Counted from the stretch's first letter, positions 3,512-20,395 are shown. The stretch is 26,079 nt of DNA from Candidatus Falkowbacteria bacterium CG10_big_fil_rev_8_21_14_0_10_43_11 (GCA_002778635.1 PFAS01000047.1:3811-29889), one strand, 5' to 3'. The notes: generated by a model from the sequence alone, not told the origin. Made by a program: numbers and translations.

Positions 3512-3512
3512 G

Positions 3513-3654
3513 ATTTATGATTTTAGATTTATGATTTATGAATAGTGAAGATTTAAAAACGAAATAATTTCTATTATGGTTGCCTCGGTAAAATATAGTA
3601 AAAGTAGAAAATAGATCTGAAATCCTAAATCATAAATCAAAAATCATAAATCAT
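3513..3654. repeat. Inverted heptamer-array element (ATTTATG)n ... (CATAAAT)n
   Basis: Left arm 3513-3543: ATTTATG ATTTTAG ATTTATG ATTTATG AAT. Right arm 3620-3654: ...CCTAAAT CATAAAT CAAAAAT CATAAAT CAT. Confidence 0.9.
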
Positions 3655-3657
3655 CGT

Positions 3658-5345: not shown

Positions 5346-5367
5346 TTTATTCAAGAAATTTTGTACA

Positions 5368-5464
5368 GACTTAATAGAGCCCGCGAACCTAATCTAAATC
5401 CGTACCAAGAATTCGTATTAAAGGTTCATAATAAGATTTAAGTCCGTAATAACTATTTGAACAT
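5368..5464. repeat. Palindromic intergenic element, 'family X' copy 1 (rpsL-rpsG)
   Basis: GACTTAA-N10-GAACCT ... AGGTTC-N10-TTAAGTC symmetric arms; ends AACTATTTGAACAT-ATG. Confidence 0.8.
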
Positions 5465-5935
5465 ATGCGAGGAAAACCAGCGCCCAAAAGAGAAATACAG
5501 CCCGATGTCCGCTACCGCGATTTGGATGTTGCTAAATTCATGAATTACATTATGGAACGCGGCAAAAAGACCGTGGCGGAAAAAATCATCTACGGCTGTT
5601 TTGACATTATCAAAGAAAAAACCAAGCAAGACCCGCGGCATGTTTTTAACAAAGCGCTGAAACAAGTGGGTCCGCAGCTGGAAGTGCGCGGCCGCCGAGT
5701 CGGCGGCGCTAATTACCAAATTCCGTATCCGGTTCGCCCGGAGCGGCGTTTCGCGCTTTCCTGCCGCTGGATTATTGACGGCGCCAAATCGCGCAAAGGC
5801 CGTTCCATGGCGGATAAGTTAGCCGCCGAAATAATGGACGCGTCCAAAGGCGAAGGCGCGGCCGTCAAGAAACGCGCGGATGTGCACCGCATGGCCGAAG
5901 CCAACAAAGCGTTTGCGCATTTCGCTCGCTACTAA
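5465..5935 (+). CDS. rpsG: 30S ribosomal protein S7
   Basis: GKKTVAEKI, RRVGGANYQIP, HRMAEANKAFAHF. Confidence 0.99.
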   Translation: MRGKPAPKREIQPDVRYRDLDVAKFMNYIMERGKKTVAEKIIYGCFDIIKEKTKQDPRHVFNKALKQVGPQLEVRGRRVGGANYQIPYPVRPERRFALSCRWIIDGAKSRKGRSMADKLAAEIMDASKGEGAAVKKRADVHRMAEANKAFAHFARY

Positions 5936-6041
5936 ATACGCAAATTACCACGAATAAATTAACGAATGGTCGCTAATTTAGTCAAAATAATTATTCTTAA
6001 ATTATTGTAAAATTTTTGTTTAATTATTATTCAATTTTCAC

Positions 6042-6077
6042 GGGATTGCCACGCTCCCTCCGGTCGCTCACAATGAC
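6042..6077. repeat. Solo half of a GTCATTGCGAG...GCAATC-type REP-like element
   Basis: Reverse complement reads GTCATTGTGAGCGACCGGAGGGAGCGTGGCAATCCC. It resembles a widespread palindromic repeat class I recall; not verified by search. No partner half in the window. Confidence 0.6.
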
Positions 6078-6130
6078 AGAAAATAACAATTTAACCAATT
6101 AACTTTTTACTTTTAACTTTCTAACTCCCT

Positions 6131-8212
6131 ATGGATTATCCCCTTAATAAAGTCCGCAACATCGGCATTATCGCCCACATCGACGCCGGCAAAACAACCG
6201 TTTCCGAGCGCATTTTATTTTACACCGGCAAAAAGCACAAAATCGGCGAGGTGCACGAAGGCGAAGCGACGATGGACTGGATGGAACAGGAGCAAGAGCG
6301 CGGTATTACCATAACGAGCGCCGCGACCACTTGTTTTTGGAAAGATTGCCGCATCAACTTAATTGATACTCCGGGACATGTGGATTTTACCGCCGAAGTG
6401 GAACGCTCTTTGCGCGTTTTAGACGGCGGCGTAGTCGTATTTGACGGCGTAGCCGGCGTTGAGCCGCAATCCGAAACGGTTTGGCATCAGGCGGAAAAAT
6501 ACAGCGTGCCGCGCATGTGTTTTATCAATAAATTGGATAGAACCGGCGCGGATTTTTATAAAGACGTGGAATCCATTCACAGCCGTTTGACCAAAAGCGC
6601 TTACCCGATCCAGCTGCCTATCGGCACGGAAGAAAATTTTCGCGGCTTAGTTGATTTGCTTACGCGCAAAGCGCGAATTTACGAAGACGAATTGGGCACT
6701 AAATTCAGCGACGAAGAGGTGCCGGCGGACATGAAAGACAAAGTGGAAGAATACCGCGCGAAATTGGTTGAAGCGATCGTGGAAAATGACGAAGAGTTAA
6801 TGGGTAAATATTTGGCCGGTGAAGAAATCGGCGCGGAAGATTTAAAAAAAGAATTGCGCGCGGGAGTAATCACTAACCGTCTGGTGCCGATTATGTGCGG
6901 CAGCGCGCTGAAAAATAAAGGCGTGCAGTTTTTATTGGACGCGGTCTGCGACTATTTGCCGTCGCCGCTTGACGTGCCGCCGCTGGAAGGAATTGACGCC
7001 AAAGACGCGGCCAAAAAAATTGCCGTACATCCGGACCCAAATGAGCCGTTCGCGGGCCTAGCTTTTAAAATCGCGACCGACCCTTTTGTCGGCAAACTTT
7101 GTTTTGTCCGCGTTTATAGCGGCATCTTAAAATCCGGCTCTTATGTTTTAAATACCGCGAACGACGCCAAAGAGCGCATCGCTCGCATTGTTTTGATGCA
7201 CGCCAATCACCGTGAGGATGTGGATGAAGTAAAGGCGGGTGAAATCGCGGCCGTGATTGGTCTAAAGAGCACCGTTACCGGACATACGCTTTGCGATGAG
7301 AGCCGCCCGCTGATTTTAGAAAGCATTACTTTCCCCGAACCGGTAATCAAAGTCGCCGTGGAACCGAAAACCAAAGCGGACCAGGAAAAAATGGGCATTG
7401 CTTTGCAGAAACTTGCGGAAGAAGACCCGACTTTTCGCGTTAATACCGATCAGGAAACCGGCCAGACTTTAATCGCGGGCATGGGCGAGTTGCATTTGGA
7501 TATTATTGTTGATCGTATGAAGCGCGAGTTTAAAGTGGAAGCGAACATCGGCCAGCCGCAAGTCGCTTATCGCGAGACAATCAAAAAAGAAGCGGAAGCC
7601 GAAGGAAAATACATCCGCCAATCCGGCGGCCGCGGTCAATACGGCCATTGCTATTTGCGCGTGAAGCCGCAAGAAACCGGCAAAGGTTTTGAATTTAACG
7701 ATGAAGTAAAAGGCGGCGCTATTCCGCGCGAGTATATTCCGGCCATTCAAAAAGGCGTTAAAGAAGCGCTGGACAAAGGAATTTTGGCCGGTTACCAGTT
7801 GGTTGACATTAGCGTTACCGTCTATGACGGTTCGTATCACGAAGTTGACTCATCCGAAGCGGCGTTTAAAATCGCGGGTTCAATGGCTTTTCAAGACGCT
7901 TGCCGCAAAGCCGATCCGGTATTGTTAGAGCCGGTAATGAATGTGGAAGTAGTAACGCCGGAACAGTTTATGGGAGATGTGGTCGGCGATATTAATTCCA
8001 AGCGAGGTAAAGTGGAAGAAATGAGCGAACGCGGCCAGATGAAAGTGATTGACGCCAAAGTGCCGCTCGCGGAAATGTTCGGTTATGCCACGCAATTGCG
8101 CTCCATGACGCAGGGCCGCGCGAGCTACAGCATGGAATTATTCGGCTACGAAGAAGTGCCGCGCAACAAAGCGCAGGAAATTATTGAAGGCAAAAGCGGA
8201 GGAAAAAAGTAG
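6131..8212 (+). CDS. fusA: Elongation factor G
   Basis: [39 protein letters not shown]; 693 aa. Confidence 0.99.
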
Positions 8213-8245
8213 CGTAAAAACATTGAAACAATTAACAAGCGATAA

Positions 8246-8274
8246 TTGACAAGTGGTAATGACAGTTATATAAT
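8246..8274 (+). promoter_or_regulatory. Perfect-consensus sigma70 promoter
   Basis: TTGACA (8246-8251), 17 nt, TATAAT (8269-8274). Confidence 0.85.
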
Positions 8275-8315
8275 TTTGATTAGTTGCAATTTTAAATAAA
8301 ATAAATTTGTGGGAT

Positions 8316-8870
8316 ATGCAAAATCAACTTGACAGGATTATAAATTTAGTAAAAAAAACCGGCGACCGTCTGGTTGTTTTGGATCGCGATAACCCGCGTC
8401 AAAGTTATGTAGTAATGGATATTAACGATTATGAAATGTTAGTGGATAAGGGAGAATGCCATTGGGATGGCGACGGCGAAAGCGATGATTTTTATAAAGA
8501 GCCTTGGGACGAGAGCGATGAAGAAGATGAAGATTGGGATTTTAAGCCGGAAAATTACTTAAGCGATGATTTAAAAGAGGATAATAATGAATATGATTTT
8601 AATGAGCCGCCGATAGTTGATCTGGACGGCGATGACTATGGGGACGACGGAAAAGAAGATTTTACGCCAATAGATGAAATTTTTGCTGAAAAAAAGGTAA
8701 AAAATAAAAAAACCAGCCAGCTTGACAATAGTTTGAAGTATGGTACAATGAAGCATAATTCCGAAGAAATCAGCGGAAAACGGCGTTCTCGCTGGGAAAT
8801 TGCGCCGGAAGTGAAAAAAACATTTGAAAATGAGCCGGAGGAAGACAGATATTATTTAGAAACCATTTAA
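8316..8870 (+). CDS. Hypothetical protein (184 aa): compact, possibly Phd/YefM-like N-terminus plus a long acidic low-complexity tail
   Basis: ATG 8316 (MQNQLDRIINLVKKTGDRLVVLDRDNPRQSYVVMDINDYEML). D/E-rich middle. C-terminus EEDRYYLETI. Confidence 0.8.
   Translation: MQNQLDRIINLVKKTGDRLVVLDRDNPRQSYVVMDINDYEMLVDKGECHWDGDGESDDFYKEPWDESDEEDEDWDFKPENYLSDDLKEDNNEYDFNEPPIVDLDGDDYGDDGKEDFTPIDEIFAEKKVKNKKTSQLDNSLKYGTMKHNSEEISGKRRSRWEIAPEVKKTFENEPEEDRYYLETI
8722..8749 (+). promoter_or_regulatory. Putative internal promoter directed at tuf
   Basis: TTGACA (8722-8727), 16 nt, TACAAT (8744-8749), with extended -10 TG at 8741-8742 and an A-tract at ~8701-8712. Confidence 0.55.
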
Positions 8871-8964
8871 TTTTTTTGGTTTTTTTTACTTTATTTATAA
8901 TAATTTAGGCGGCTGGATTGTAACCCCGCAGTACTGTGGGGGCCGTAATTAAGGAATAAAAAAC

Positions 8965-10152
8965 ATGACTGCACAATTTGAACGCACAAAACCCCATGTT
9001 AATGTCGGCACCATCGGCCACGTTGACCATGGCAAGACGACTTTAACGGCAGCTATTTTAAAAGTGTTGCATGCTAAAGGTTTTACTGCTTCCGAAAAAT
9101 CAGTTGACCAAATAGACGCTGCTCCGGAAGAAAAAGCGCGCGGCATTACAATCGCCACCGCGCATGTTGAGTATGAATCGGAAAAACGCCATTACGCGCA
9201 CGTAGACTGCCCGGGTCACGCCGATTACGTCAAAAACATGATTACCGGCGCGGCTCAGATGGATGGCGCGATTTTGGTCGTGAGTGCGACTGACGGTCCG
9301 ATGCCGCAAACGCGCGAACATATTTTGCTTGCAAATCAGGTAGGCGTGCCGTATGTCGTGGTATTTTTAAACAAAGTTGACATGGTTGAGGATAAAGAAT
9401 TGATTGATTTGGTAGAAGAAGAAGTTCGTGATTTATTAAAAAAGTACGAATTTGACGGCGATAACGCGACGATTATCCGCGGCAGCGCTTTGAAGGCGTT
9501 AGAAGATCCGAACGGCGAGTACGGCCAGGCGATTTTAGATTTAGTCAAGGCTTTGGACGAAAAGATTCCGGAGCCGAAACGCGATATTGATAAGCCGTTT
9601 TTAATGCCGATTGAAGATGTTTTCTCAATTGAAGGCCGCGGCACCGTAGTCACCGGCCGCATTGAGCGCGGCATAGTAAAAGTCGGCGAAGAACTGGAAA
9701 TAATCGGTTTGCGCGATACCCAAAAGACTACTGCCACCGGCATTGAAATGTTTAACAAAACTTTAAATCAGGGACAAGCGGGAGACAACGCCGGCGTACT
9801 TTTGCGCGGCACTAAAAAAGATGAAGTGGAACGCGGCCAGGTTTTGGCTAAACCAGGATCAGTTACTCCGCATACGGAATTTGAATCCGAGGTATATGTT
9901 TTAACCAAAGAAGAAGGCGGACGCCATAAGCCGTTTTTTAAAGGATATAAGCCGCAATTTTACATCGGCACCACTGATGTTACGGGCGAGGTAAGTTTGT
10001 CGGAAGGAACGGAAATGGTCATGCCGGGCGATACCGTCAAAATGACGATTAAATTAATCGCGCCCATCGCTTTGGAAGAAAAGCAAAAATTCGCCATTCG
10101 CGAAGGCGGCCATACCGTAGGCGCCGGCGTTGTGGCAAAAATGATTAAGTAA
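8965..10152 (+). CDS. tuf: Elongation factor Tu
   Basis: [33 protein letters not shown]. Confidence 0.99.
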
Positions 10153-10160
10153 ATACTTTA

Positions 10161-10183
10161 TCCTCCGAAATATTTTCGGAGGA
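10161..10183 (+). other. 10-bp perfect hairpin between tuf and rpsJ, without a U-tract
   Basis: TCCTCCGAAA-TAT-TTTCGGAGGA. Confidence 0.7.
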
Positions 10184-10237
10184 CAGCAGTGTTTATTTAT
10201 AAACGCTAAATCTTTAAAATTAGAAAATAAAGATTAC

Positions 10238-10600
10238 ATGAGTATCACTGAAACAAACAAGAAGCCAGCGTCGGATGCGGTCGTTCCTGAAGACAGCAAA
10301 CAAAAAATCAGGATTAAGATTCGCGCTTACGATTACAAAATCATCGATCAAGCGGCAAAAACGATTATTGAAAGCGTTCAGCGTAGCGGCGTGCAGGTTT
10401 TCGGCCCGATTCCGCTGCCAACGGCCAAAAGAAAGTACACGGTAAACCGATCTACTTTCGTGCACCGGAAATCAAAGGAGCAGTATGAAATGCGCGTTCA
10501 TAAGCGTTTGATTGATATTATTGAGCCGACTGCCAAAACAGTGGAGCTTCTGACAAATTTAAGCTTGCCGACCGGCGTGGACGTGGAAATTAAAATGTGA
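10238..10600 (+). CDS. rpsJ: 30S ribosomal protein S10 (short N-terminal extension)
   Basis: KIRIKIRAYDYK, GPIPLPT, EQYEMRVHKRLIDI; TGA stop. Confidence 0.99.
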   Translation: MSITETNKKPASDAVVPEDSKQKIRIKIRAYDYKIIDQAAKTIIESVQRSGVQVFGPIPLPTAKRKYTVNRSTFVHRKSKEQYEMRVHKRLIDIIEPTAKTVELLTNLSLPTGVDVEIKM

Positions 10601-10839
10601 TAGATCGCTAATTGCCACGAATTCATAAACGAACAGCCGCGAATTACTAGTACGCAAAATAAAAATACATCATTGGATTGTTGCTGTAACCCCTTTTGGG
10701 AAGTATGGCAAGAAGAAGATGATAAAAAACGAGGATTTAAGAGTCAAATAACTACAACAAAAAGTAAAGCTAGCCAAGATATTTTAGAATTCTGGCGCTT
10801 TGTTGTAAGGCCAGATTTTTTATTTCAATTAGTTTTAAT

Positions 10840-11631
10840 ATGAAATTCATTTTAGGCAAAAAATTAGAGATGACGCAGCTTTTCCAAGACGACGGAACGG
10901 TCGTGCCGGTGACTAAAATTCAGGCGGGACCGTGCGTCGTAACGCAGGTTAAAAACGCCGGTAAAGACGGTTACGCGGCCGTGCAATTTGGTTATGGAGC
11001 AAAGAGAGCAAAAAATATTAATAAATCATTGCGCGGGCATGCGGACGGCTTGGGTAATTTTCAATATTTGCGGGAGATGAGGGTTAAAGACGAAAACAAA
11101 GAGAAAGTTGAATTGAAGCGCGGGCAAATCATTGATGTTTCCAGTTTTATTCTAGGCGATGTCGTTGACGCGATTGGCGCGTCCAAAGGGCTTGGTTTTC
11201 AGGGCGTAGTCAAACGGCATCATTTTCACGGTTCTCCCGGGAGCCACGGCCACAAAGACCAATTGCGGCACTCGGGTTCAGTGGGGGCTAAAGGTCCGGC
11301 GCATGTTTTTAAGGGCACTCGCATGGGCGGCCACATGGGCGATGAGCGAGTAACGATGAAAAATTTATCAATTGCCAAAGTTGACGCGGACAATAATATT
11401 TTATATGTCAGAGGAGCGGTACCCGGAGCGCGCAACGGATTAGTTATCATTAAGGGAGAAGGGGAGATGACGATTGCGGAAAGTAAGAAGTCGGAAGTAA
11501 GAAGTGAAGAAAAAGAGACGGAAAAAATTACCAATGACGAATTAAGAATTAAGAATAAAGGAGAGGAACAAGCAGCAGAAGAGAACATAGAAGAAAAAGA
11601 ACAAAAAAAAGAAGAAGTCGCGGCAATTTAA
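10840..11631 (+). CDS. rplC: 50S ribosomal protein L3 with a ~57-aa acidic C-terminal tail
   Basis: GKKLEMTQ, KGLGFQGVVKRH, GTRMGGHMG, GAVPGARNG. Confidence 0.99.
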   Translation: MKFILGKKLEMTQLFQDDGTVVPVTKIQAGPCVVTQVKNAGKDGYAAVQFGYGAKRAKNINKSLRGHADGLGNFQYLREMRVKDENKEKVELKRGQIIDVSSFILGDVVDAIGASKGLGFQGVVKRHHFHGSPGSHGHKDQLRHSGSVGAKGPAHVFKGTRMGGHMGDERVTMKNLSIAKVDADNNILYVRGAVPGARNGLVIIKGEGEMTIAESKKSEVRSEEKETEKITNDELRIKNKGEEQAAEENIEEKEQKKEEVAAI

Positions 11632-11655
11632 CAATGTGACAATGCAGTAATTTTT

Positions 11656-12321
11656 ATGAAAGTTAAAGTTTATAATCAAAACGCGGAAATAGTCGGAGAG
11701 CAGGATTTAAATCCGGCGGTATTTGACGTAAAAGCGAACGAAGCTTTAATTCATCAGGTTGCGGTGGCGCAAATGTCCAACGAGCGGCAGGTGCTCGCCC
11801 ATACCAAAACCAAAGGCGAAGTGCGCGGCGGCGGCCGCAAGCCTTGGCGCCAAAAAGGCACCGGCCGGGCGCGCGCCGGTTCATCCCGCAGTCCGTTATG
11901 GACCGGCGGCGGCGTGACTTTTGGACCGCGCTCCAATCGCAATTTTTCCAAAAAGATAAATATCAAAATGAAACGACAAGCGATCTTGGGAGTTTTGTCG
12001 GATAAGGTTCGCCATCAGAGTTTGATAATAGTTGATAAATTAGATTTGCCGGAAGCAAAAACCAAGCAAGCGGCGCTCATAATTAAAAATTTTGCCGCGA
12101 AAACGATAATTGGCGGTGAAGCGAACAAACAGAGAAAAAATAATATTTTAGTGATGACAGCGGGCAGAGAAGAAAAAGCGGAGCGGGCGCTGAAAAATTT
12201 AACCAGCGCGGAGTTGATAAAAATTAACAACATCAATATTTTGGATTTGTTAAAATATAAAAACATAATTTTAACTTTGGAAACGGTTAAAAAATTAGAA
12301 GAGCGGTATTCAGGCAAATAG
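11656..12321 (+). CDS. rplD: 50S ribosomal protein L4
   Basis: GGGRKPWRQKGTGRARAGS..GGGVTFGP. Confidence 0.99.
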   Translation: MKVKVYNQNAEIVGEQDLNPAVFDVKANEALIHQVAVAQMSNERQVLAHTKTKGEVRGGGRKPWRQKGTGRARAGSSRSPLWTGGGVTFGPRSNRNFSKKINIKMKRQAILGVLSDKVRHQSLIIVDKLDLPEAKTKQAALIIKNFAAKTIIGGEANKQRKNNILVMTAGREEKAERALKNLTSAELIKINNINILDLLKYKNIILTLETVKKLEERYSGK

Positions 12322-12330
12322 CAAAAACAT

Positions 12331-12759
12331 ATGGCAGCATTTAAAGCAAAAAAAAATAGCAATCAAGACGGCCAGCCGGACAAAAATCCAAGCATGAAAG
12401 ATTTGTATGACGGCGGCATCAGCGCGACCGCAACTGACGCAAAAAAAGGAAAGTCAGCGGCGCGCGGCTCTTATTTGGAATCATATCGCGTGTTAATTAA
12501 ACCGTTAGTCACTGAAAAAGCGGCCAAAATCGGAGCGGCAAACAAATATGCTTTTGTAGTGTCAAAAGAAGCCAATAAAATAATGGTTGCCAAGGCGATA
12601 GAGCATGTCTATGGCGTTAAACCGGTTAGAATCAATATTATTAATAGAACAGGCAAAGTAGTTCGCAGCCGGCGGGGAAACGGCAAAAGAAAAGATTGGA
12701 AAAAGGCGATAATCAGTCTGCCTAAAGGAAAAAACATTAATATTTACGAAGGCGTGTAG
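12331..12759 (+). CDS. rplW: 50S ribosomal protein L23 with a ~50-aa N-terminal extension
   Basis: IKPLVTEKA, NKYAFVV, KDWKKAIISL. Confidence 0.97.
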   Translation: MAAFKAKKNSNQDGQPDKNPSMKDLYDGGISATATDAKKGKSAARGSYLESYRVLIKPLVTEKAAKIGAANKYAFVVSKEANKIMVAKAIEHVYGVKPVRINIINRTGKVVRSRRGNGKRKDWKKAIISLPKGKNINIYEGV

Positions 12760-12777
12760 TTCAATAACGCCAAAAAG

Positions 12778-12984
12778 GGACTTAATAGATTAGCGAACCC
12801 TTAATACGAATGCTTCTTGCGGATTTAGTTGCCCCCGCAGTTATACGAATGCCACGAATGTAGGAAAAAAGTTTAACAGCAGAATTCGTAGCATTCATGT
12901 CCATCTTAGCCGTTATAAGTCCGTATAAAGAGCTCGCATTAAAGATTCACTAAAAGATTAAAGTCCATAATTAACTTTTTGAAC
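12778..12984. repeat. Nested palindromic element: family X arms enclosing an ACGAAT/ATTCGT inverted module (rplW-rplB)
   Basis: Outer: GGACTTAATA..GCGAACCCTTAATACGAAT (12778-12811) and TAAGTCC..GCTCGCATTAAAGATTCA..TTTTTGAAC. Inner: GAATGCCACGAAT (12847-12859) / ATTCGTAGCATTC (12884-12896). Confidence 0.8.
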
Positions 12985-13821
12985 ATGGGTATAAGAACGG
13001 TAAAACCAACAACGAACGCATTGCGTCAAGTAACCTTTGACGATTTTGCCGATATCACCGCCGTTAGGCCGCTGAAGCGCTTGACCGTGCCAAAGAAAAA
13101 AAAAGGCGGCCGAAATTTTCAAGGTAAAATTACCATTCGCCATCAGGGCGGAGGGGCAAAACAACGAGTCCGGCTGGTTGATTTTAAACAGGATAAATTT
13201 GACGTCTTGGCGACGGTGAAAACGATTGAATATGATCCGACCAGAGGCGCCAGAGTCGCTTTGTTGTTTTACCGCGACGGCGAGAAGCGCTACATTATCG
13301 CGCCCGACGGTTTAAAAGTGGGCGATACGCTAATGAGTTCGGAACAAAAGCAGGAAGCAAAATTAGGCATGCGCCTGCCGTTAAAACACATCCCGATTGG
13401 TTTAGAGATACATAATGTGGAATTGGTTCGGGGCGCCGGCGGAAAATTAGCCCGCGGCGCCGGTAATTTGGTCAAATTAATGGCCATTGACGGAGACAAC
13501 GCTCAATTAAGATTGCCCTCCGGCGAAATCAGACTGGTAAAAAGCGATTGTTTGGCGACTATCGGCAAAGTAAGCAATCCTGACCGTCGTTTGATTTCTA
13601 TCGGCAAAGCCGGTCGCAGCCGTTTGTTGGGAATACGCCCGACCGTGCGCGGCACGGCGATGAACCCGGTTGACCATCCGCACGGCGGCGGCGAAGGCAA
13701 ACAGTCCATTGGTTTGAAAGCGCCTAAAACTAAGTGGGGCAAGAAAGCGCTCGGCGTCAAAACCAGAAAGCCGCAACCGTCAGACCGACTGATAATGCAG
13801 AGAAGGAAAAAGAGAAAGTAA
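12985..13821 (+). CDS. rplB: 50S ribosomal protein L2
   Basis: ATG 12985 (MGIRTVKPTT); IEYDPTR, RLPSGE, MNPVDHPHGGGEG. Confidence 0.99.
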   Translation: MGIRTVKPTTNALRQVTFDDFADITAVRPLKRLTVPKKKKGGRNFQGKITIRHQGGGAKQRVRLVDFKQDKFDVLATVKTIEYDPTRGARVALLFYRDGEKRYIIAPDGLKVGDTLMSSEQKQEAKLGMRLPLKHIPIGLEIHNVELVRGAGGKLARGAGNLVKLMAIDGDNAQLRLPSGEIRLVKSDCLATIGKVSNPDRRLISIGKAGRSRLLGIRPTVRGTAMNPVDHPHGGGEGKQSIGLKAPKTKWGKKALGVKTRKPQPSDRLIMQRRKKRK

Positions 13822-13868
13822 CTAGTCAAAAGTCCATAAAGTCAAATTTGTATTAACATGTTGAACAT

Positions 13869-14201
13869 ATGTCCAGAAGCTTAAAAAAAGGTCCTTATGT
13901 AAATGAGGATTTAATAAAAAAGATAAAAAATTTAATGCCGAACGATAAGACGGTTGTTAAAACTTGGGACAGGTCTTGCACGATTACGCCAGCAATGGTA
14001 GGTTTTACTATCGGCGTTTATAACGGCCGCCAGCATGTTCCGGTAAGGGTAGTGGAAAATATGGTCGGCCATAAGTTGGGCGAGTTTTCCTTGACGCGCA
14101 AGTTTATCGTGCACGGCGGCAAGAAAGCCAAAGAACAAGAGCGCGAAGCGGCCCAAAAATCAGCCGCGCCCGTTGCCGCTCCGGCCGCCAAAAAAGTTTA
14201 A
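13869..14201 (+). CDS. rpsS: 30S ribosomal protein S19 (A/P/K tail)
   Basis: [24 protein letters not shown]. Confidence 0.99.
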
Positions 14202-14217
14202 TTAATTTTATTTAGAT

Positions 14218-14811
14218 ATGCGGATAACGGCTAAAGTAAAAAACGTCAGAATTGCGCCGCGCAAATTGCGGTTAGTGGTTGATTATGTCCGAAAGATGAA
14301 AGTAGGAGATGCTTTAAATCGCTTGCGTCTGCTTAATAAAACAGGCAGCCAAACCGTGATGAAAGCGATTAATTCGGCCATAGCCAACGCCGAACATAAT
14401 TTTGAATTAGATAAAAATAATTTGTTTATTCAGGAAATCAAAGTGAATGAAGCGGCTACTTTAAAACGCTGGATGCCGCGGGCGCACGGCCGCGCCACCC
14501 CGATCAGAAAACGAGGCAGCCATTTGGAATTAATTTTAGCGGAAATAAAAGACAGCGGCGTTAAAGCGGGCAAAAAACCGACGATGGAAGCGCCGGTAAA
14601 ATTATCGGAAGTGGCCAAAGAACCGTTGGCGGCCGCGGCTAAGCCGGCGGTTAAAGCCAAGGACGCGTTTGACGCTGACATTAAAGATACTGCAGCAGAA
14701 GGTGAAAAGGAAATTCAGAACGTCCAGCGCGAAGGTCGAGCCGGACATGCGCGAGCCGAAGGCGGACGTAAAGGTTTTGCCAGCCGAATGTTTAGAAGAA
14801 AGTCAGGATAA
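14218..14811 (+). CDS. rplV: 50S ribosomal protein L22 with an ~87-aa C-terminal extension
   Basis: RIAPRKLRLV, SAIANAEHN, LKRWMPRAHGRA. Confidence 0.98.
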   Translation: MRITAKVKNVRIAPRKLRLVVDYVRKMKVGDALNRLRLLNKTGSQTVMKAINSAIANAEHNFELDKNNLFIQEIKVNEAATLKRWMPRAHGRATPIRKRGSHLELILAEIKDSGVKAGKKPTMEAPVKLSEVAKEPLAAAAKPAVKAKDAFDADIKDTAAEGEKEIQNVQREGRAGHARAEGGRKGFASRMFRRKSG

Positions 14812-14813
14812 GC

Positions 14814-14912
14814 AGTCAAAAGTTCATAAAGTTATAAAGTTAGAAGGTAAAACGCTAAAAATTGAACTTTATTGAACTTTATAGACTTTACGGATTTTAT
14901 AGACTTTATAAC
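14814..14912. repeat. Inverted 8-10-nt tandem array (AAAGTT.AT / ACTTTA) between rplV and rpsC
   Basis: Left: AGTCAAAAGTTCATAAAGTTATAAAGTT. Right: TTGAACTTTA TTGAACTTTA TAGACTTTA CGGATTTTA TAGACTTTA TAAC. Confidence 0.85.
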
Positions 14913-14920
14913 TAATAAGT

Positions 14921-15616
14921 ATGGGACAAAAAGTACATCCAAAAATTTTTCGCACCGGAGTAATTTATACCTGGCCTTCAAAATGGTTCAGTTCACGCCG
15001 CACTTTGGCCGTTAAAATAAAACAAGACGTCCAGATCCGCCGTTTTTTGATAAAAAAATTAAGAGAGGCCGGAGTTGACAAGGTGGAAATTGAACGCGAC
15101 GCCCAAAAAATAATAATTACCGTCTATACGGCAAAACCGGGGCTCGTTATCGGCCGCGGCGGCGCGGGCGCGGAAGATTTGAAAAAAGAAGTTAAGCGCA
15201 AATTTTTGCCCAAGGTCAAGTTAGGCGAAATTAATTTAAACATTAACGAAGTTGACCGGCCGAATTTGTCGGCGCAAATAGTCTTGCAGGGGATGATTTT
15301 AGAGATTGAAAAACGCCTGCCGTTTAGGCGGGTAATGAAGCAGGCGATTATGCATGTTCAGCGCGCGGGCGCTTTAGGCGTCAAAGTGCAGATAAAAGGG
15401 CGGCTGAACGGAGCGGAAATCGCGCGTGAAGAAAAAATGGCGGTCGGGAAGATTCCTTTGCATACTTTGCGCGCGGACATTGATTACGCTCGCGGCGCGG
15501 CCCATACCACCTACGGCGCGATTGGCCTTAAAATTTGGATTTATCGCGGTGAAATATTTAACAAAGAAGAGTCTAAGACGGGCGATGTCGTCGGTGAAGT
15601 TAAAAACAGAAAATAA
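14921..15616 (+). CDS. rpsC: 30S ribosomal protein S3
   Basis: MGQKVHP, KPGLVIGRGG, GRLNGAEIAR. Confidence 0.99.
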   Translation: MGQKVHPKIFRTGVIYTWPSKWFSSRRTLAVKIKQDVQIRRFLIKKLREAGVDKVEIERDAQKIIITVYTAKPGLVIGRGGAGAEDLKKEVKRKFLPKVKLGEINLNINEVDRPNLSAQIVLQGMILEIEKRLPFRRVMKQAIMHVQRAGALGVKVQIKGRLNGAEIAREEKMAVGKIPLHTLRADIDYARGAAHTTYGAIGLKIWIYRGEIFNKEESKTGDVVGEVKNRK

Positions 15617-15622
15617 AAATTT

Positions 15623-16027
15623 ATGTTAGCGCCAAAAAAAACCAAACACAGAAAACATCATCAGATCAAACCCTCGGGGACAAGCACTCGCGGGACGGAA
15701 TTAAATTTCGGCAGTTTTGGCTTAAAGGCGCTGGAATCGCGCTGGATTACCGCAAGGCAGATAGAAGCGGCTCGGCGCGTCATTACCCGTTATACCGCCC
15801 GCGGCGGCAAAATGTGGATTAGGATTTTTCCGGACGCGGTGATTACTAAAAAAAGCGGTGAAATTCCAATGGGAAAAGGCAAGGGCGATCCGGATCATTT
15901 TGTGGCGATAGTTTATCGAGGCAGAGTGCTGTTTGAATTGGAAGGCATTAAAGAAGCGCAGGCAAAAAAGGCTTTGACGCTCGCGGCCCACAAATTACCG
16001 ATAAAATGCAAATTTATTAAGAAATAG
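15623..16027 (+). CDS. rplP: 50S ribosomal protein L16
   Basis: RQIEAARR, WIRIFPD, MGKGKG, AAHKLP. Confidence 0.99.
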   Translation: MLAPKKTKHRKHHQIKPSGTSTRGTELNFGSFGLKALESRWITARQIEAARRVITRYTARGGKMWIRIFPDAVITKKSGEIPMGKGKGDPDHFVAIVYRGRVLFELEGIKEAQAKKALTLAAHKLPIKCKFIKK

Positions 16028-16029
16028 TT

Positions 16030-16224
16030 ATGGAGATTAAAGAGTTAAAAAATAAAAATATCAGCGAATTGCAGGCAATACTGAGAATCAAGCGGGACAA
16101 ATTGCGCGAACTGCGTTTTAAAGATGCGGCGAAACAGCTGAAAAACATCAGAGAATTAAGGATGATTAAAAAAGATATCGCGCAAATTTTGACCTTAATT
16201 AATGTCAAAGAATATGGAAAATAA
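16030..16224 (+). CDS. rpmC: 50S ribosomal protein L29
   Basis: ELRELRF...[14 protein letters not shown]; position between rplP and rpsQ. Confidence 0.97.
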
Positions 16225-16489
16225 AGAGCCAGCCAAAATAATTAAAAAATTTTACGGGGTAGTCGTAAGCGCTAAAATGGATAAGACCCGCGTAGTTAAG
16301 GTTGACCGGGTCAAGTGCCATCCGAAGTACCGGAAAAGTTTTATGCGGAGCAAAAAATATAAAGTGCATGACGAACGCAATCAGTTTAAAGAAGGCGATC
16401 AGGTTACTTTCGTCGAATGCCGACCGTTGTCCAAAGATAAAAGATGGAGAGTACTGTATGAAGCAAAAAGTAAGAAGCAAGAAACATAA
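16214..16489 (+). CDS. rpsQ: 30S ribosomal protein S17 (start 16214 or 16202; overlaps rpmC)
   Basis: [30 protein letters not shown]. Confidence 0.98.
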
Positions 16490-16564
16490 AAACATAAAAC
16501 GCGAGAACATAAAAAAATACATTCGTATTAATGGTTCGCTTAATGATTTAAGTATTTGAACGAT

Positions 16565-16936
16565 ATGATTCAACACAGAACAATGTTAAAATTAGCAGAT
16601 AACAGCGGCGCCAAACTGGTGCAGTGCATCAAAGTTTTAGGCGGTTATAAGAAACGCTACGCCCGCATTGGCGATGTTATTACCGTCGCGGTAAAAGAAG
16701 CGGTGCCTCACAGTTTGGTAAAAAAAGGCGATGTGACGCATGCGGTGGTGGTGCGCACGCGTAAAGAAATAAAGCGCAATAACGGGGTTTGCGTCCGTTT
16801 TGACGAAAACGCCTGCGTCTTAGTTGACCAAAAAACTAAAGAGCCGAAAGGCACTAGAATTTTCGGGCCGGTAGTCAGAGAGCTGCGCGACCGTGGCTTT
16901 ATAAAAATCGTTTCGCTGGCGCCGGAAGTGCTGTAG
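16565..16936 (+). CDS. rplN: 50S ribosomal protein L14
   Basis: ATG 16565 ([17 protein letters not shown]); [15 protein letters not shown]. Confidence 0.99.
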
Positions 16937-17048
16937 TAGAAAAAGTCGGTACGGGTTTTGTAGGTTAGCGATCCTTAGCAGATATAAGCCCGCATGAAGA
17001 ATTCGTATCAAAGGTTCATAAAAATACGTAGTAACTATTTGAACAATT

Positions 17049-17360
17049 ATGAAGATAAAATCAGGAGACAAAGTTAAAATAATCGCCGGAAAAGATAAAG
17101 GCAAAACGGGAAAAGTGCTGCAGATTTTTCCGCGTGAGCAAAAAGCGAGCGTTGAGGGTTTGAATTTATTGATAAAACATTTGCGGCCGCGCCGCCAAGG
17201 AGAAAAAGGCCAACGAATAGAATTTCCGGCTCCGTTAAGCCTTTCCAATCTTCAGCTTATCTGCAAACAGTGCGGCCAAGCCGCCAGAGTTAATTTTAAA
17301 ATTTTAGATAGCGGAAAAAAAGCAAGAATTTGCCAAAAATGCAAACAGGTCATGGATTAA
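17049..17360 (+). CDS. rplX: 50S ribosomal protein L24 (Cys-containing: CKQC...CQKC)
   Basis: KSGDKVKIIAGKDKGKTGKV. Confidence 0.99.
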   Translation: MKIKSGDKVKIIAGKDKGKTGKVLQIFPREQKASVEGLNLLIKHLRPRRQGEKGQRIEFPAPLSLSNLQLICKQCGQAARVNFKILDSGKKARICQKCKQVMD

Positions 17361-19600: not shown

Positions 19601-19681
19601 GTTTAAAGTTAAAAGTAAAAAGGAATGAAGACAAATTGACGGTTAATTGTAGGATTAAGTAAGTAATAAATATTTGAATTT

Positions 19682-20395
19682 ATGCCAGAAGAAATTAAAA
19701 AAAATGAAGAAGAAAAAACAGAAGAACCGGCAGTAGTGCTGGAAGAAATTGAAGTAGAAGACGAAGAGGCTAAAAAAGCTCCGGTCGCCCAGCTTAAGAG
19801 CAAAGGACGCCGAGGTTTTGGCGCGCCTTCCGGCGGTGGCGGAGGCAGGCGCCGAGGCCGTGATGATCGGAAAAACGCGGAAAAAAGCGAATACGAACAG
19901 AAGATAGTCGATATCGCTCGCGTTACGCGCGTTATGGCCGGCGGAAAACGGATGCGCTTTCGCGCTTGCGTCGTTTTGGGCAACCGCAACGGTAAAGTAG
20001 GCGTCGGTTTAGCTAAAGCGGCTGACGTCACTAACGCCATCACCAAAGCGGTGGAACAGGCCAAAAAGAACATGCTGTTAATGCAAATAGTCAACGGCAC
20101 TATCGTCCATGAAGTGCGGCATAAATTCGGCGCGGCGCGGATTTTATTAAAACCGTCCAAACAAGGAACGGGCATTATCGCGGGCGGCGCGGCGCGGATC
20201 GTGCTTGAACTTGCCGGCATTAAAAATATCGTCGGTAAAATTTTGGGCACGAGCAATTCGGTCAATAACGTAAAGTGCGTCATGGAAGCTTTAAGAAGTT
20301 TAAAATATGTTGAACCTAAGGCAAAAAAGATTAAGCCAGGCGAACCGAGGATAAATAATCAGCCAGCCGACAAAGCGGAAGTAAAAAATATTTAA
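19682..20395 (+). CDS. rpsE: 30S ribosomal protein S5 with a ~70-aa acidic then G/R-rich N-terminal extension
   Basis: RVTRVMAGGKRMRF, GVGLAKA, GTGIIAGG. Confidence 0.99.
   Translation: MPEEIKKNEEEKTEEPAVVLEEIEVEDEEAKKAPVAQLKSKGRRGFGAPSGGGGGRRRGRDDRKNAEKSEYEQKIVDIARVTRVMAGGKRMRFRACVVLGNRNGKVGVGLAKAADVTNAITKAVEQAKKNMLLMQIVNGTIVHEVRHKFGAARILLKPSKQGTGIIAGGAARIVLELAGIKNIVGKILGTSNSVNNVKCVMEALRSLKYVEPKAKKIKPGEPRINNQPADKAEVKNI

Follow-up and report, generated by a model that had tools for sequence, protein, structure and literature searches.

REP and REPIN sequences are GC-rich palindromes of 20-40 nt with a GTAG head and a RAYT (Y1) transposase, and the MIRU of mycobacteria are direct tandem units of 40-100 bp with small open reading frames (ORFs) that couple translation. 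Other intergenic repeats are ERIC of Enterobacteriaceae (~127 bp) and Correia/CREE of Neisseria (~104-157 bp), and the REP2 repeats of Neisseria and IR repeats of Borrelia lie immediately upstream of genes and carry promoter, ribosome-binding site and ATG (PMC3184786). Hairpin repeats of the NTS/SRM type go with the Ssn (GIY-YIG) nucleases, the SRM being a GC-rich hairpin of ~30 bp (PMC11893778). Here we describe a palindromic repeat, family X, that fills gaps between ribosomal protein (r-protein) genes in a stretch of 26,079 nt from Candidatus Falkowbacteria bacterium CG10_big_fil_rev_8_21_14_0_10_43_11 (GCA_002778635.1 PFAS01000047.1:3811-29889), hereafter the window. No description of this element was found in our literature searches. 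Its anatomy as a repeat family, its distribution, the variable occupancy of its sites and the slow evolution of its copies were observed directly. Family X is probably a lineage-specific dispersed palindromic repeat, akin to miniature inverted-repeat transposable elements (MITEs) and to ERIC, that is co-transcribed and whose tail has been taken over as an AU-rich initiation region independent of Shine-Dalgarno (SD) sites.

The element and its copies in the window

The window corresponds to C13:3811-29889 in a genome (G000; other G numbers denote relatives) of 822 kb in 77 contigs, with 42% G+C and 85% completeness. In a comparison of S7 proteins its top hits, all from metagenome-assembled genomes, stood at 68-72%, and those labeled Candidatus Magasanik-, Taylor-, Nomura- and Yanofskybacteria at 56-60%. 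All its genes lie on the plus strand, in the order rpsL-rpsG-fusA-orfX-tuf followed by the S10 and spc clusters, and no tRNAs were found in it. A preliminary description of this DNA had placed related sequences before rpsG, rplB, rplN and rplX, each ending T(A/T)TTTGAAC 0-4 nt before the ATG. Both observations hold: the strings quoted for 5411-5464, 16521-16564 and 17001-17048 match the sequence exactly, the rplB string has one surplus A (its true start is 12932, not 12931), and TTTGAAC closes all four copies 0-4 nt ahead of the ATG. With up to three mismatches the 17-nt core ATTCGTATTAAWGGTTC occurs four times in the window as compared to 0.28 times expected, and 0 of 100 shuffles reached four. 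One of these matches is an inverted copy at 12795-12811 that had not been listed before.

Arms were defined by aligning the window copies with three additional sequences from other parts of the genome that match the core exactly, followed by iterated nhmmer searches, in which the number of arms rose from 22 to 27 and then to 28, each ~68 nt long, on more than 15 contigs. The arm consensus consists, in order, of TAAATCCGTA, ATTCGTATTAAnGGTTCGC, a variable stretch and TAAATCCGTAAnAACTnTTTGAAC, with ATTCGYRTTAAWGGTTC as its core. The four quoted sequences are the start-side (S) arms of a larger palindromic element of 110-230 nt. Arms often stand back to back as inverted pairs, ~60-120 nt apart, and between them lies a central module of ACGAAT/ATTCGT hairpins; such pairs give elements of 190-230 nt with a predicted fold of -50 to -70 kcal/mol. 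When complete, the element is made up of a stop-side arm, the central module and a start-side arm ending AACTnTTTGAAC. It contains no ORF and occupies the entire gap from stop to start (rpsL-rpsG 119 nt, rplW-rplB 225 nt, rplN-rplX 112 nt). The upstream inverted arms (GACTTAA, GAACC) reported earlier for the rpsG and rplB copies are real and belong to the degenerate left arm of the whole palindrome.

The two arms of an element differ systematically, as two core columns are anti-correlated: the S arm reads TTAAtGGTTC and has the AACTnTTTGAAC end, its partner, the T arm, reads TTAAaGGATC and has another end, often TAGAA after the stop. At co-directional junctions the usual order is stop, T arm, center, S arm, ATG; symmetric S-S elements are found in different settings, and lepB-hisS is a conserved case of reversed arm order. 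In a small sample of T-S elements the final 15-20 nt before the AUG are unpaired in predicted folds, and their start region is predicted to be unpaired with a probability of ~0.63 as compared to ~0.43 in symmetric elements (small n). The copies in the window are as follows (MFE, minimum free energy).

5346..5464, plus strand: short palindromic element in the rpsL-rpsG gap (nhmmer arm C13:9205-9273, score 59; fold of the whole gap), with a degenerate left arm at ~5350-5392 ending beside the rpsL stop and an S arm at 5395-5463 ending TATTTGAAC-AT; rpsG ATG at 5465
12760..12984, plus strand: full-length 225-nt element in the rplW-rplB gap (nhmmer C13:16587-16637 on the minus and 16726-16794 on the plus strand; MFE -50 to -52 kcal/mol)
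12777-12827, minus strand: left arm of the rplW-rplB element, outer end GTTCAA overlapping the rplW TAG
~12828-12915: central module of the rplW-rplB element, ACGAAT/ATTCGT hairpins
12916-12984, plus strand: right S arm of the rplW-rplB element, ending TTTTTGAAC flush with the rplB ATG at 12985
13859..13868, plus strand: solo S-arm-end remnant TGTTGAACAT before the rpsS ATG at 13869 (from the sequence)
16519..16564, plus strand: internally deleted single S arm in the rpsQ-rplN gap (nhmmer C13:20329-20370), ending TATTTGAAC-GAT; rplN ATG at 16565
16937..17048, plus strand: short element in the rplN-rplX gap, T arm starting TAGAAAAAGTCGG directly after the rplN TAG
16985-17045, plus strand: S arm of the rplN-rplX element (nhmmer C13:20795-20855), ending TATTTGAAC-AATT; rplX ATG at 17049
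19671..19681, plus strand: possible solo remnant TATTTGAATTT before the rpsE ATG at 19682 (from the sequence; missed by the arm model)

The shorter and half copies are deletion derivatives of the full element. End motifs had been claimed earlier for rpsS and rpsE, and both are present. The rpsS motif is a true remnant, since the relative G004 has a longer arm with the same end (ACATGTTGAACAT) at this junction, and the rpsE motif may be a chance occurrence. The rpsG gene of G004 is also preceded by an orthologous arm copy. All window elements are spanned by contigs that match the window identically and come from further groundwater samples, and the elements are therefore not assembly artefacts. 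Among the joints listed for four groundwater runs, which come from other organisms, none skipped an element.

A second type of junction filler is built of hairpins with 7-8-nt units (AATTCGT/TACGAAT). It was seen in loci of relatives (L010, L014, L009) at the rplW-rplB and rplB-rpsS junctions, that is at junctions holding a family X element in the window genome, and also at window positions 5936-6130 and 10601-10839 and in the 16S leader of G005 (L191, ~1230-1390). A word found in such ATTCGTA-type fillers recurs in family X, both in the central module and in the core, and ATTCGTA is about three times commoner in intergenic than in coding DNA of the window genome, even outside arms. Short-period intergenic palindromes at 3512-3657 (ATAAATC units) and 14812-14920 (ATAAAGT units) are unrelated in sequence to family X.

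Genomic context, occupancy and age of the copies

Gene context in the window genome was taken from a crude ORF-based gene call. Thirteen arms lie 0-4 nt from an ATG (rpsG, rplB, rplN, rplX, rplT, rpmI, rpsT, mreB, dciA, the gene of a DUF5667 protein and those of three proteins without Pfam family), and one degenerate arm lies 13 nt upstream of hisS. Stop codons are abutted as tightly (rpsL, rplW, rplN, ftsZ, lepB and an ABC-transport auxiliary gene), and further arms adjoin the poly-A side of convergent terminator hairpins. In a wider sample of 60 further loci from relatives, 71 arms had an intact end: 40 at a start codon (0-7 nt, mostly TTGAAC-T-ATG), 7 at a convergent stop and 24 elsewhere, many of the latter against convergent terminators and three facing the 3' end of a convergent tRNA. 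Together with the window genome this gives 57 start-abutting arms in 41 gene families; 48 of the 57 end TTGAAC, at a spacing to the ATG that ranges from 0 to 6 nt with a mode of 1 nt (19 of the 41 families). About 12 of the families are r-proteins (S7, S18, S20, L2, L3, L13, L14, L16, L20, L24, L29 and L31; names outside the window are our own reading of N-terminal sequences), and the remainder includes MreB, DciA, MraZ, HPF, FtsE-like ATPases, a pilin and PilT-like proteins. Eighty metagenome loci added 14 arms at starts, 2 at stops and 9 in other positions, and one metagenome contig has copies at both rpsM-rpsK and rplM-rpsI. That arms stand so close to start codons is largely a consequence of where the element lies, as empty junctions measure 2-10 nt and stops and terminators are touched equally.

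In the str/S10/spc cluster an r-protein gene directly follows each of the four copies, which could be read as a shared RNA operator by which rpsG, rplB, rplN and rplX are autoregulated. The distribution refutes this in practice and we give it next to no credence. The element stands before mreB, dciA, hisS and numerous unrelated genes as well and behaves as a MITE/ERIC-like repeat, and it is therefore not an r-protein-specific regulator; close relatives moreover lack it at these r-protein junctions, an Rfam 15 search of the whole window gave no match at E<=1, r-protein leaders included, and no covariation was found. The preliminary description had alternatively suggested a MITE/REP-like element targeting r-protein junctions. 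Dispersal, inverted arms, the ~28 arms and variable occupancy support such an element. The targeting holds only as an enrichment, with r-protein genes making up 7 of the 13 start-abutting copies in the window genome, far above the ~6% that we take to be their share of a genome, yet not exclusive: matches extend to other genes, stop codons and terminators.

Relatives, which are incomplete metagenome-assembled genomes and phylogenetically non-independent samples, were searched with a sequence-only covariance model (R1) of 25 arms. Arms were found in all 11 genomes of the family that includes the window genome (f1; 11-42 per genome, only 1-2 in G005), in all five genomes of family f8 (3-8 per genome) and in one of four genomes of family f19 (4 arms), and none were found in 23 other families of the order (~100 genomes). 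The middle part of the S arm is diverged in f8, and the core and a YTTGAAC end 0-4 nt before ATGs are kept.

We located the r-protein clusters of eight relatives and tabulated 23 junctions over nine genomes. The arm model assigns the relatives' junction fillings to the same family, with ends that lie 1-3 nt from the ATG. Between rplW and rplB the gap is 225 nt in the window genome and 2-9 nt in G008, G004, G010 and G003. At rplN-rplX the gap is filled in G000, in G010 and G006 (225 nt in both) and in G002, with the elements of G010 and G006 orthologous to the window copy, and it is 4 nt in G008 and G004, which belong to the genus of G010, and 21 nt in the congener G001. The rpsC-rplP gap is filled in G004 only, and rpsS-rplV, rpsH-rplF and rplP-rpmC are filled in G006 and/or G003 and short or empty in the others. 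Presence and absence differ even within one genus, and gain and loss cannot be told apart from these differences. The rpsQ-rplN junction offers a graded series, from a 45-nt arm in the window genome over a 25-nt end in G008 and G004 to a bare TTTGAACAT in G010; the ATG-proximal end is always retained in remnants. Between G004 and G008, whose flanking coding sequences are near-identical, the rpsC-rplP and rplB-rpsS gaps are wholly replaced, as are the final codons of the gene upstream (L011 vs. L009), and identity returns exactly at the downstream ATG. This looks like a cassette-like exchange of spacers.

Three further observations concern the same clusters. In four relatives a contig stops 0.5-1.4 kb from rplB or in the gene itself (G001:C2, G004:C59, G008:C4, G007:C22), consistent with repeats disrupting assemblies in r-protein clusters. 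The rplN-rplX gap of G002 (L015) is 529 nt long and has, upstream of a right-half element, an ORF of ~60 codons with a strong AGGAGG site, which may be cargo or an independent small gene. Between fusA and tuf, orfX (window 8307-8870) has tblastn relatives of 33-58% identity at the same position in G006, G002 and G007 and is therefore conserved in the family, not a recent insert.

Inside the S10/spc cluster occupancy is thus largely variable, and little orthologous constancy is left there for the shared cis-element that had been proposed as the second possibility. This possibility retains some support, however, as some copies are orthologous across genera and evolve much more slowly than four-fold sites, and as the TTGAAC end at ATGs survives in f8. 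In all, 11 gene families have an arm in 2-5 genomes, among them rpsR (five genomes of four genera), rplX (three genomes), mreB, rpsG, dciA and hisS, and shared idiosyncratic variants show that those copies are orthologous by descent. For inter-genus pairs the identity of orthologous arms is 0.62-0.87, as compared to 0.24-0.61 at four-fold degenerate sites of the adjacent genes in the same pairs; non-orthologous arms between genomes have a mean identity of 0.69 and arms within the window genome one of 0.70. The blocks TTAA, GGTT and TTGAAC are invariant and common to all genera, with a mild lineage preference at one core position. Judged from these alignments, copies are held near a common consensus while neutral sites approach saturation, which requires either purifying selection on each copy or continuing homogenization.

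Pairing, initiation signals and candidate partners

A compensatory change in the GTTC/GAAC pairing, as claimed in the preliminary description, was not supported. GTTC and GAAC can pair in 88.8% of cells vs. 89.1% with shuffled partners, the sole variation being G-U or A-U at one position, and RNAalifold gave no consensus pair within the arm. The same picture emerged for pairing between arms, where own-partner complementarity in 25 two-armed elements was 0.630 vs. 0.628 for foreign partners, and 2184 of 5000 permutations were as high as the own-partner value. No significant covariation in support of a conserved RNA structure was thus found in either test. The conserved pairs never vary in these tests, so a helix is compatible with the null result, and the hairpin potential arises because both arms match one consensus, not through compensatory evolution.

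The earlier statement that this lineage largely lacks SD sites is borne out by the genome, in which GGAGG is present in 20 and AGGA in 52 of 520 upstream regions, no more than about double their rate further upstream. A T at -1 precedes 75% of the 520 ATG-started genes (e.g. window 5465, 13869 and 17049), and the upstream 25 nt are ~75-85% A+T; such a UAUG context could allow extended pairing with the initiator tRNA. The S-arm tail holds no SD motif. The pattern TTGAA[CT]-N0-4-ATG occurs in frame at ~15 of 688 gene 5' ends as compared to 11 of 3119 internal in-frame ATGs. As a general ribosome-binding signal it was rejected, because only ~2% of genes have TTGAAC-ATG and, away from the arms, intergenic DNA shows no enrichment of TTGAAC. 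TTTGAAC is not a substitute SD for an altered anti-SD either, as two relatives with an assembled 16S have the canonical 3' end GATCACCTCCTTT; the assembly of the window genome itself contains no 16S. The arm tail, which we take to resemble the boxA of Gram-positive bacteria, was also considered for antitermination, and this was dismissed since the rRNA leaders of relatives have neither an arm nor a TTTGAAC-type box. For annotation it matters that the TTG of TTGAAC is easily miscalled as a start codon: at window 12979 (rplB) and 16556 (rplN) it is in frame and a naive ORF finder takes it as the start, whereas the conserved N-termini of rplB and rplN relatives start at the ATG.

The S arm might also act as an outward promoter cassette of the Correia or Neisseria REP2 type, starting transcription a few bases before the ATG and giving leaderless or near-leaderless mRNA. 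Many of the abutted genes are typically first in operons (rpsT, rpmE, rplM, mraZ, mreB and hpf, as read from N-termini), and T at -1 with A at +1 fits a pyrimidine-purine start site. The same T is however found at genes in operon gaps of 2-5 nt, too short for a promoter, and none of the copies stands in sense orientation ahead of a gene for tRNA or another RNA, the tRNAs detected being convergent. None of the hexamers in the last 30 nt of the consensus combines A at position 2 with T at position 6, and consensus scans of the four copies on the gene strand gave neither a sigma-70-like promoter nor a terminator-like site. This lineage does use textbook promoters: a perfect TTGACA-17-TATAAT stands before orfX, the relatives' rRNA operons have them and canonical TTGACA-17-TAnAAT is used elsewhere. 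We therefore regard a promoter cassette as very unlikely, and the S10/spc elements are most simply seen as co-transcribed spacers. A look-up of RNA data sets gave no entry for this stretch or for rplB.

The search for a mobilizing partner covered the window genome, the loci of 10 relatives and 80 metagenome loci. Y1 transposases are present in 10 of the 11 family genomes, with end hairpins of their own and no arms nearby. In the window genome a RAYT/IS200-type partner was rejected: hairpins of a separate type (GGGCTTCAGCCC) flank the Y1_Tnp genes of C41 and C42, and no arm was detected on those contigs even at E<=100. These IS200-like genes lie at C41:2829-3182 and C42:7397-7729; one has an in-frame TGA, and parts of both contigs read N. 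Small GIY-YIG genes of the Ssn type are abundant in the family and were likewise rejected, as they neither flank nor track arms (five genes in G005 vs. 1-2 arms). On C35 of the window genome (16500-17000) a 98-aa GIY-YIG gene has on either side a copy of the 5' part of a tRNA gene (GGCCTCATCGTCTAATGGTTAGGACATCAGGTTTT) and no arms nearby, an arrangement that looks like a homing-type insertion into the tRNA gene. Long-spaced arm pairs enclose ordinary r-protein genes; one candidate pair from the metagenome encloses rpsK-rpsD-rpoA-rplQ-rplM. TA often follows TTGAAC (TTGAAC-TA-TG) and precedes left ends, an association that is confounded by the genome-wide T at -1.

These data also bear on a DNA-level role, in which a lineage-specific protein (a nucleoid, replication or recombination factor, or a domesticated transposase) would bind the copies and keep them near consensus, as in REPIN-RAYT systems. 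The sequence is conserved and not the pairing, the three invariant blocks recur in all genera, and the element has persisted across two or three families. No candidate protein was found, however, with the Y1 and small GIY-YIG genes lacking flanking arms and their numbers not tracking those of arms, and binding at the DNA level would leave the bias of intact ends towards start codons unexplained. We consider this role unlikely.

The main rival, to which we give some tentative weight, is that family X is a portable expression module, with a stop-side arm, a hairpin for intercistronic processing or stability and, as an SD-independent initiation signal, a single-stranded tail ending TTGAAC 0-4 nt before the AUG, selected at each site and perhaps recognized by a lineage-specific factor or by the ribosome. 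It would account for orthologous copies near consensus, the tight TTGAAC-ATG spacing, remnants that always keep the ATG-proximal end, the persistence of the TTGAAC end at ATGs in f8 despite the diverged arm middle, and the enrichment of translation and cell-division genes. It also fits the unlike arms (GGTTC with the TTGAAC end, GGATC with the other end), which leave the tail unpaired in the small sample given above. On the other hand, the intact end is also found at stop codons and convergent terminators, the same junctions do without the element in close relatives, no helix covaries, and lepB-hisS is conserved with reverse polarity. The more specific proposal that in this SD-poor lineage the hairpin of the polar element separates cistrons and its TTGAAC tail specifies initiation is rather improbable in our estimate; if true, a mobile repeat and not an SD site would set the expression of several percent of genes, many r-protein genes among them.

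Origin of the element and comparison with known systems

To return to the dispersed repeat with a co-opted tail, its copies occupy the few-base gaps between tightly packed genes, so that both ends touch a stop, a terminator or a start codon. Copies inside operons would be co-transcribed, and the element would be gained and lost over time. The AU-rich single-stranded tail may now serve as the SD-independent initiation region of the downstream gene, and this would be why the ATG-side end is lost last. Several results weigh against this explanation. No target-site duplication was demonstrated, and no autonomous partner was found in the loci searched, in a search that was not exhaustive; the metagenome scan gave only ordinary copies, and the window genome's own Y1 genes stand apart from arms. 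Orthologous copies are far better conserved than four-fold sites, which is not expected of plainly decaying MITE copies. Intact TTGAAC ends favor starts over stops in the relatives (40 vs. 7) and on metagenome contigs (14 vs. 2), and r-protein genes account for ~12 of the 41 abutted families. The start bias, the r-protein share and the slow evolution together suggest selection on individual copies. Family X goes beyond a decaying selfish insert in its slow orthologous evolution, in the preferential survival of TTGAAC at ATGs and in the polar T-S build that leaves the tail single-stranded.

To our knowledge, repeats have rarely been described in genomes of the candidate phyla radiation (CPR)/Patescibacteria, which are usually presented as streamlined. 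Family X sits inside the most conserved operons, alters gene spacing between close relatives and replaces the initiation region of essential genes, and it probably breaks assemblies at r-protein genes. If its copies are under selection, they offer a way to study how translation is initiated and polycistronic mRNAs are divided in SD-poor bacteria; if they are purely selfish, insertion into operon gaps of 2-10 nt is tolerated.

Taken together, family X is a MITE-like intergenic palindromic repeat that none of the systems compared here fits fully. Of the features of MITEs it has small non-coding dispersed copies, inverted arm pairs and presence/absence polymorphism at orthologous sites, and as the termini of many elements differ (TAGAA... 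vs. ...TTGAAC) the inverted repeats are subterminal and not strictly terminal. With ERIC and Correia it shares a non-coding sequence of 100-230 nt, inverted arms forming a long imperfect hairpin, tens of intergenic copies that are often co-transcribed in operons, presence or absence at orthologous sites and restriction to one lineage. It differs from them in that no TA duplication was demonstrated and no promoter or IHF site was recognized, in its systematically unlike arms, in copies conserved well beyond neutral sites, in its 0.8-Mb CPR-type host and in filling the stop-to-start gaps of r-protein operons. As in REP2 and the Borrelia IR repeats, the end of a dispersed repeat stands against the start codons of unrelated genes and supplies their upstream region, but unlike REP2 family X has no recognizable promoter or SD site and adjoins stop codons and terminators as well. 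Like MIRU it is wedged in intercistronic operon gaps where it touches the stop of one gene and the start of the next, although it is a palindrome without ORF. Inverted doublets, extragenic hairpins, long vertical persistence and copies near consensus recall REP/REPIN, whereas the arms are ~68 nt long, AT-rich and without a GTAG head, and Y1 genes are not flanked by them. There is also a likeness to Ssn/SRM, in that hairpin repeats are dispersed around genes and the genomes of the family have many small GIY-YIG genes, but the sole small GIY-YIG gene of the window genome lies inside a tRNA gene with no arms near it, and gene counts do not follow arm counts. Family X is nearest to ERIC and Correia in form, to REP2, the Borrelia IR repeats and MIRU in position, and to REPINs in persistence.

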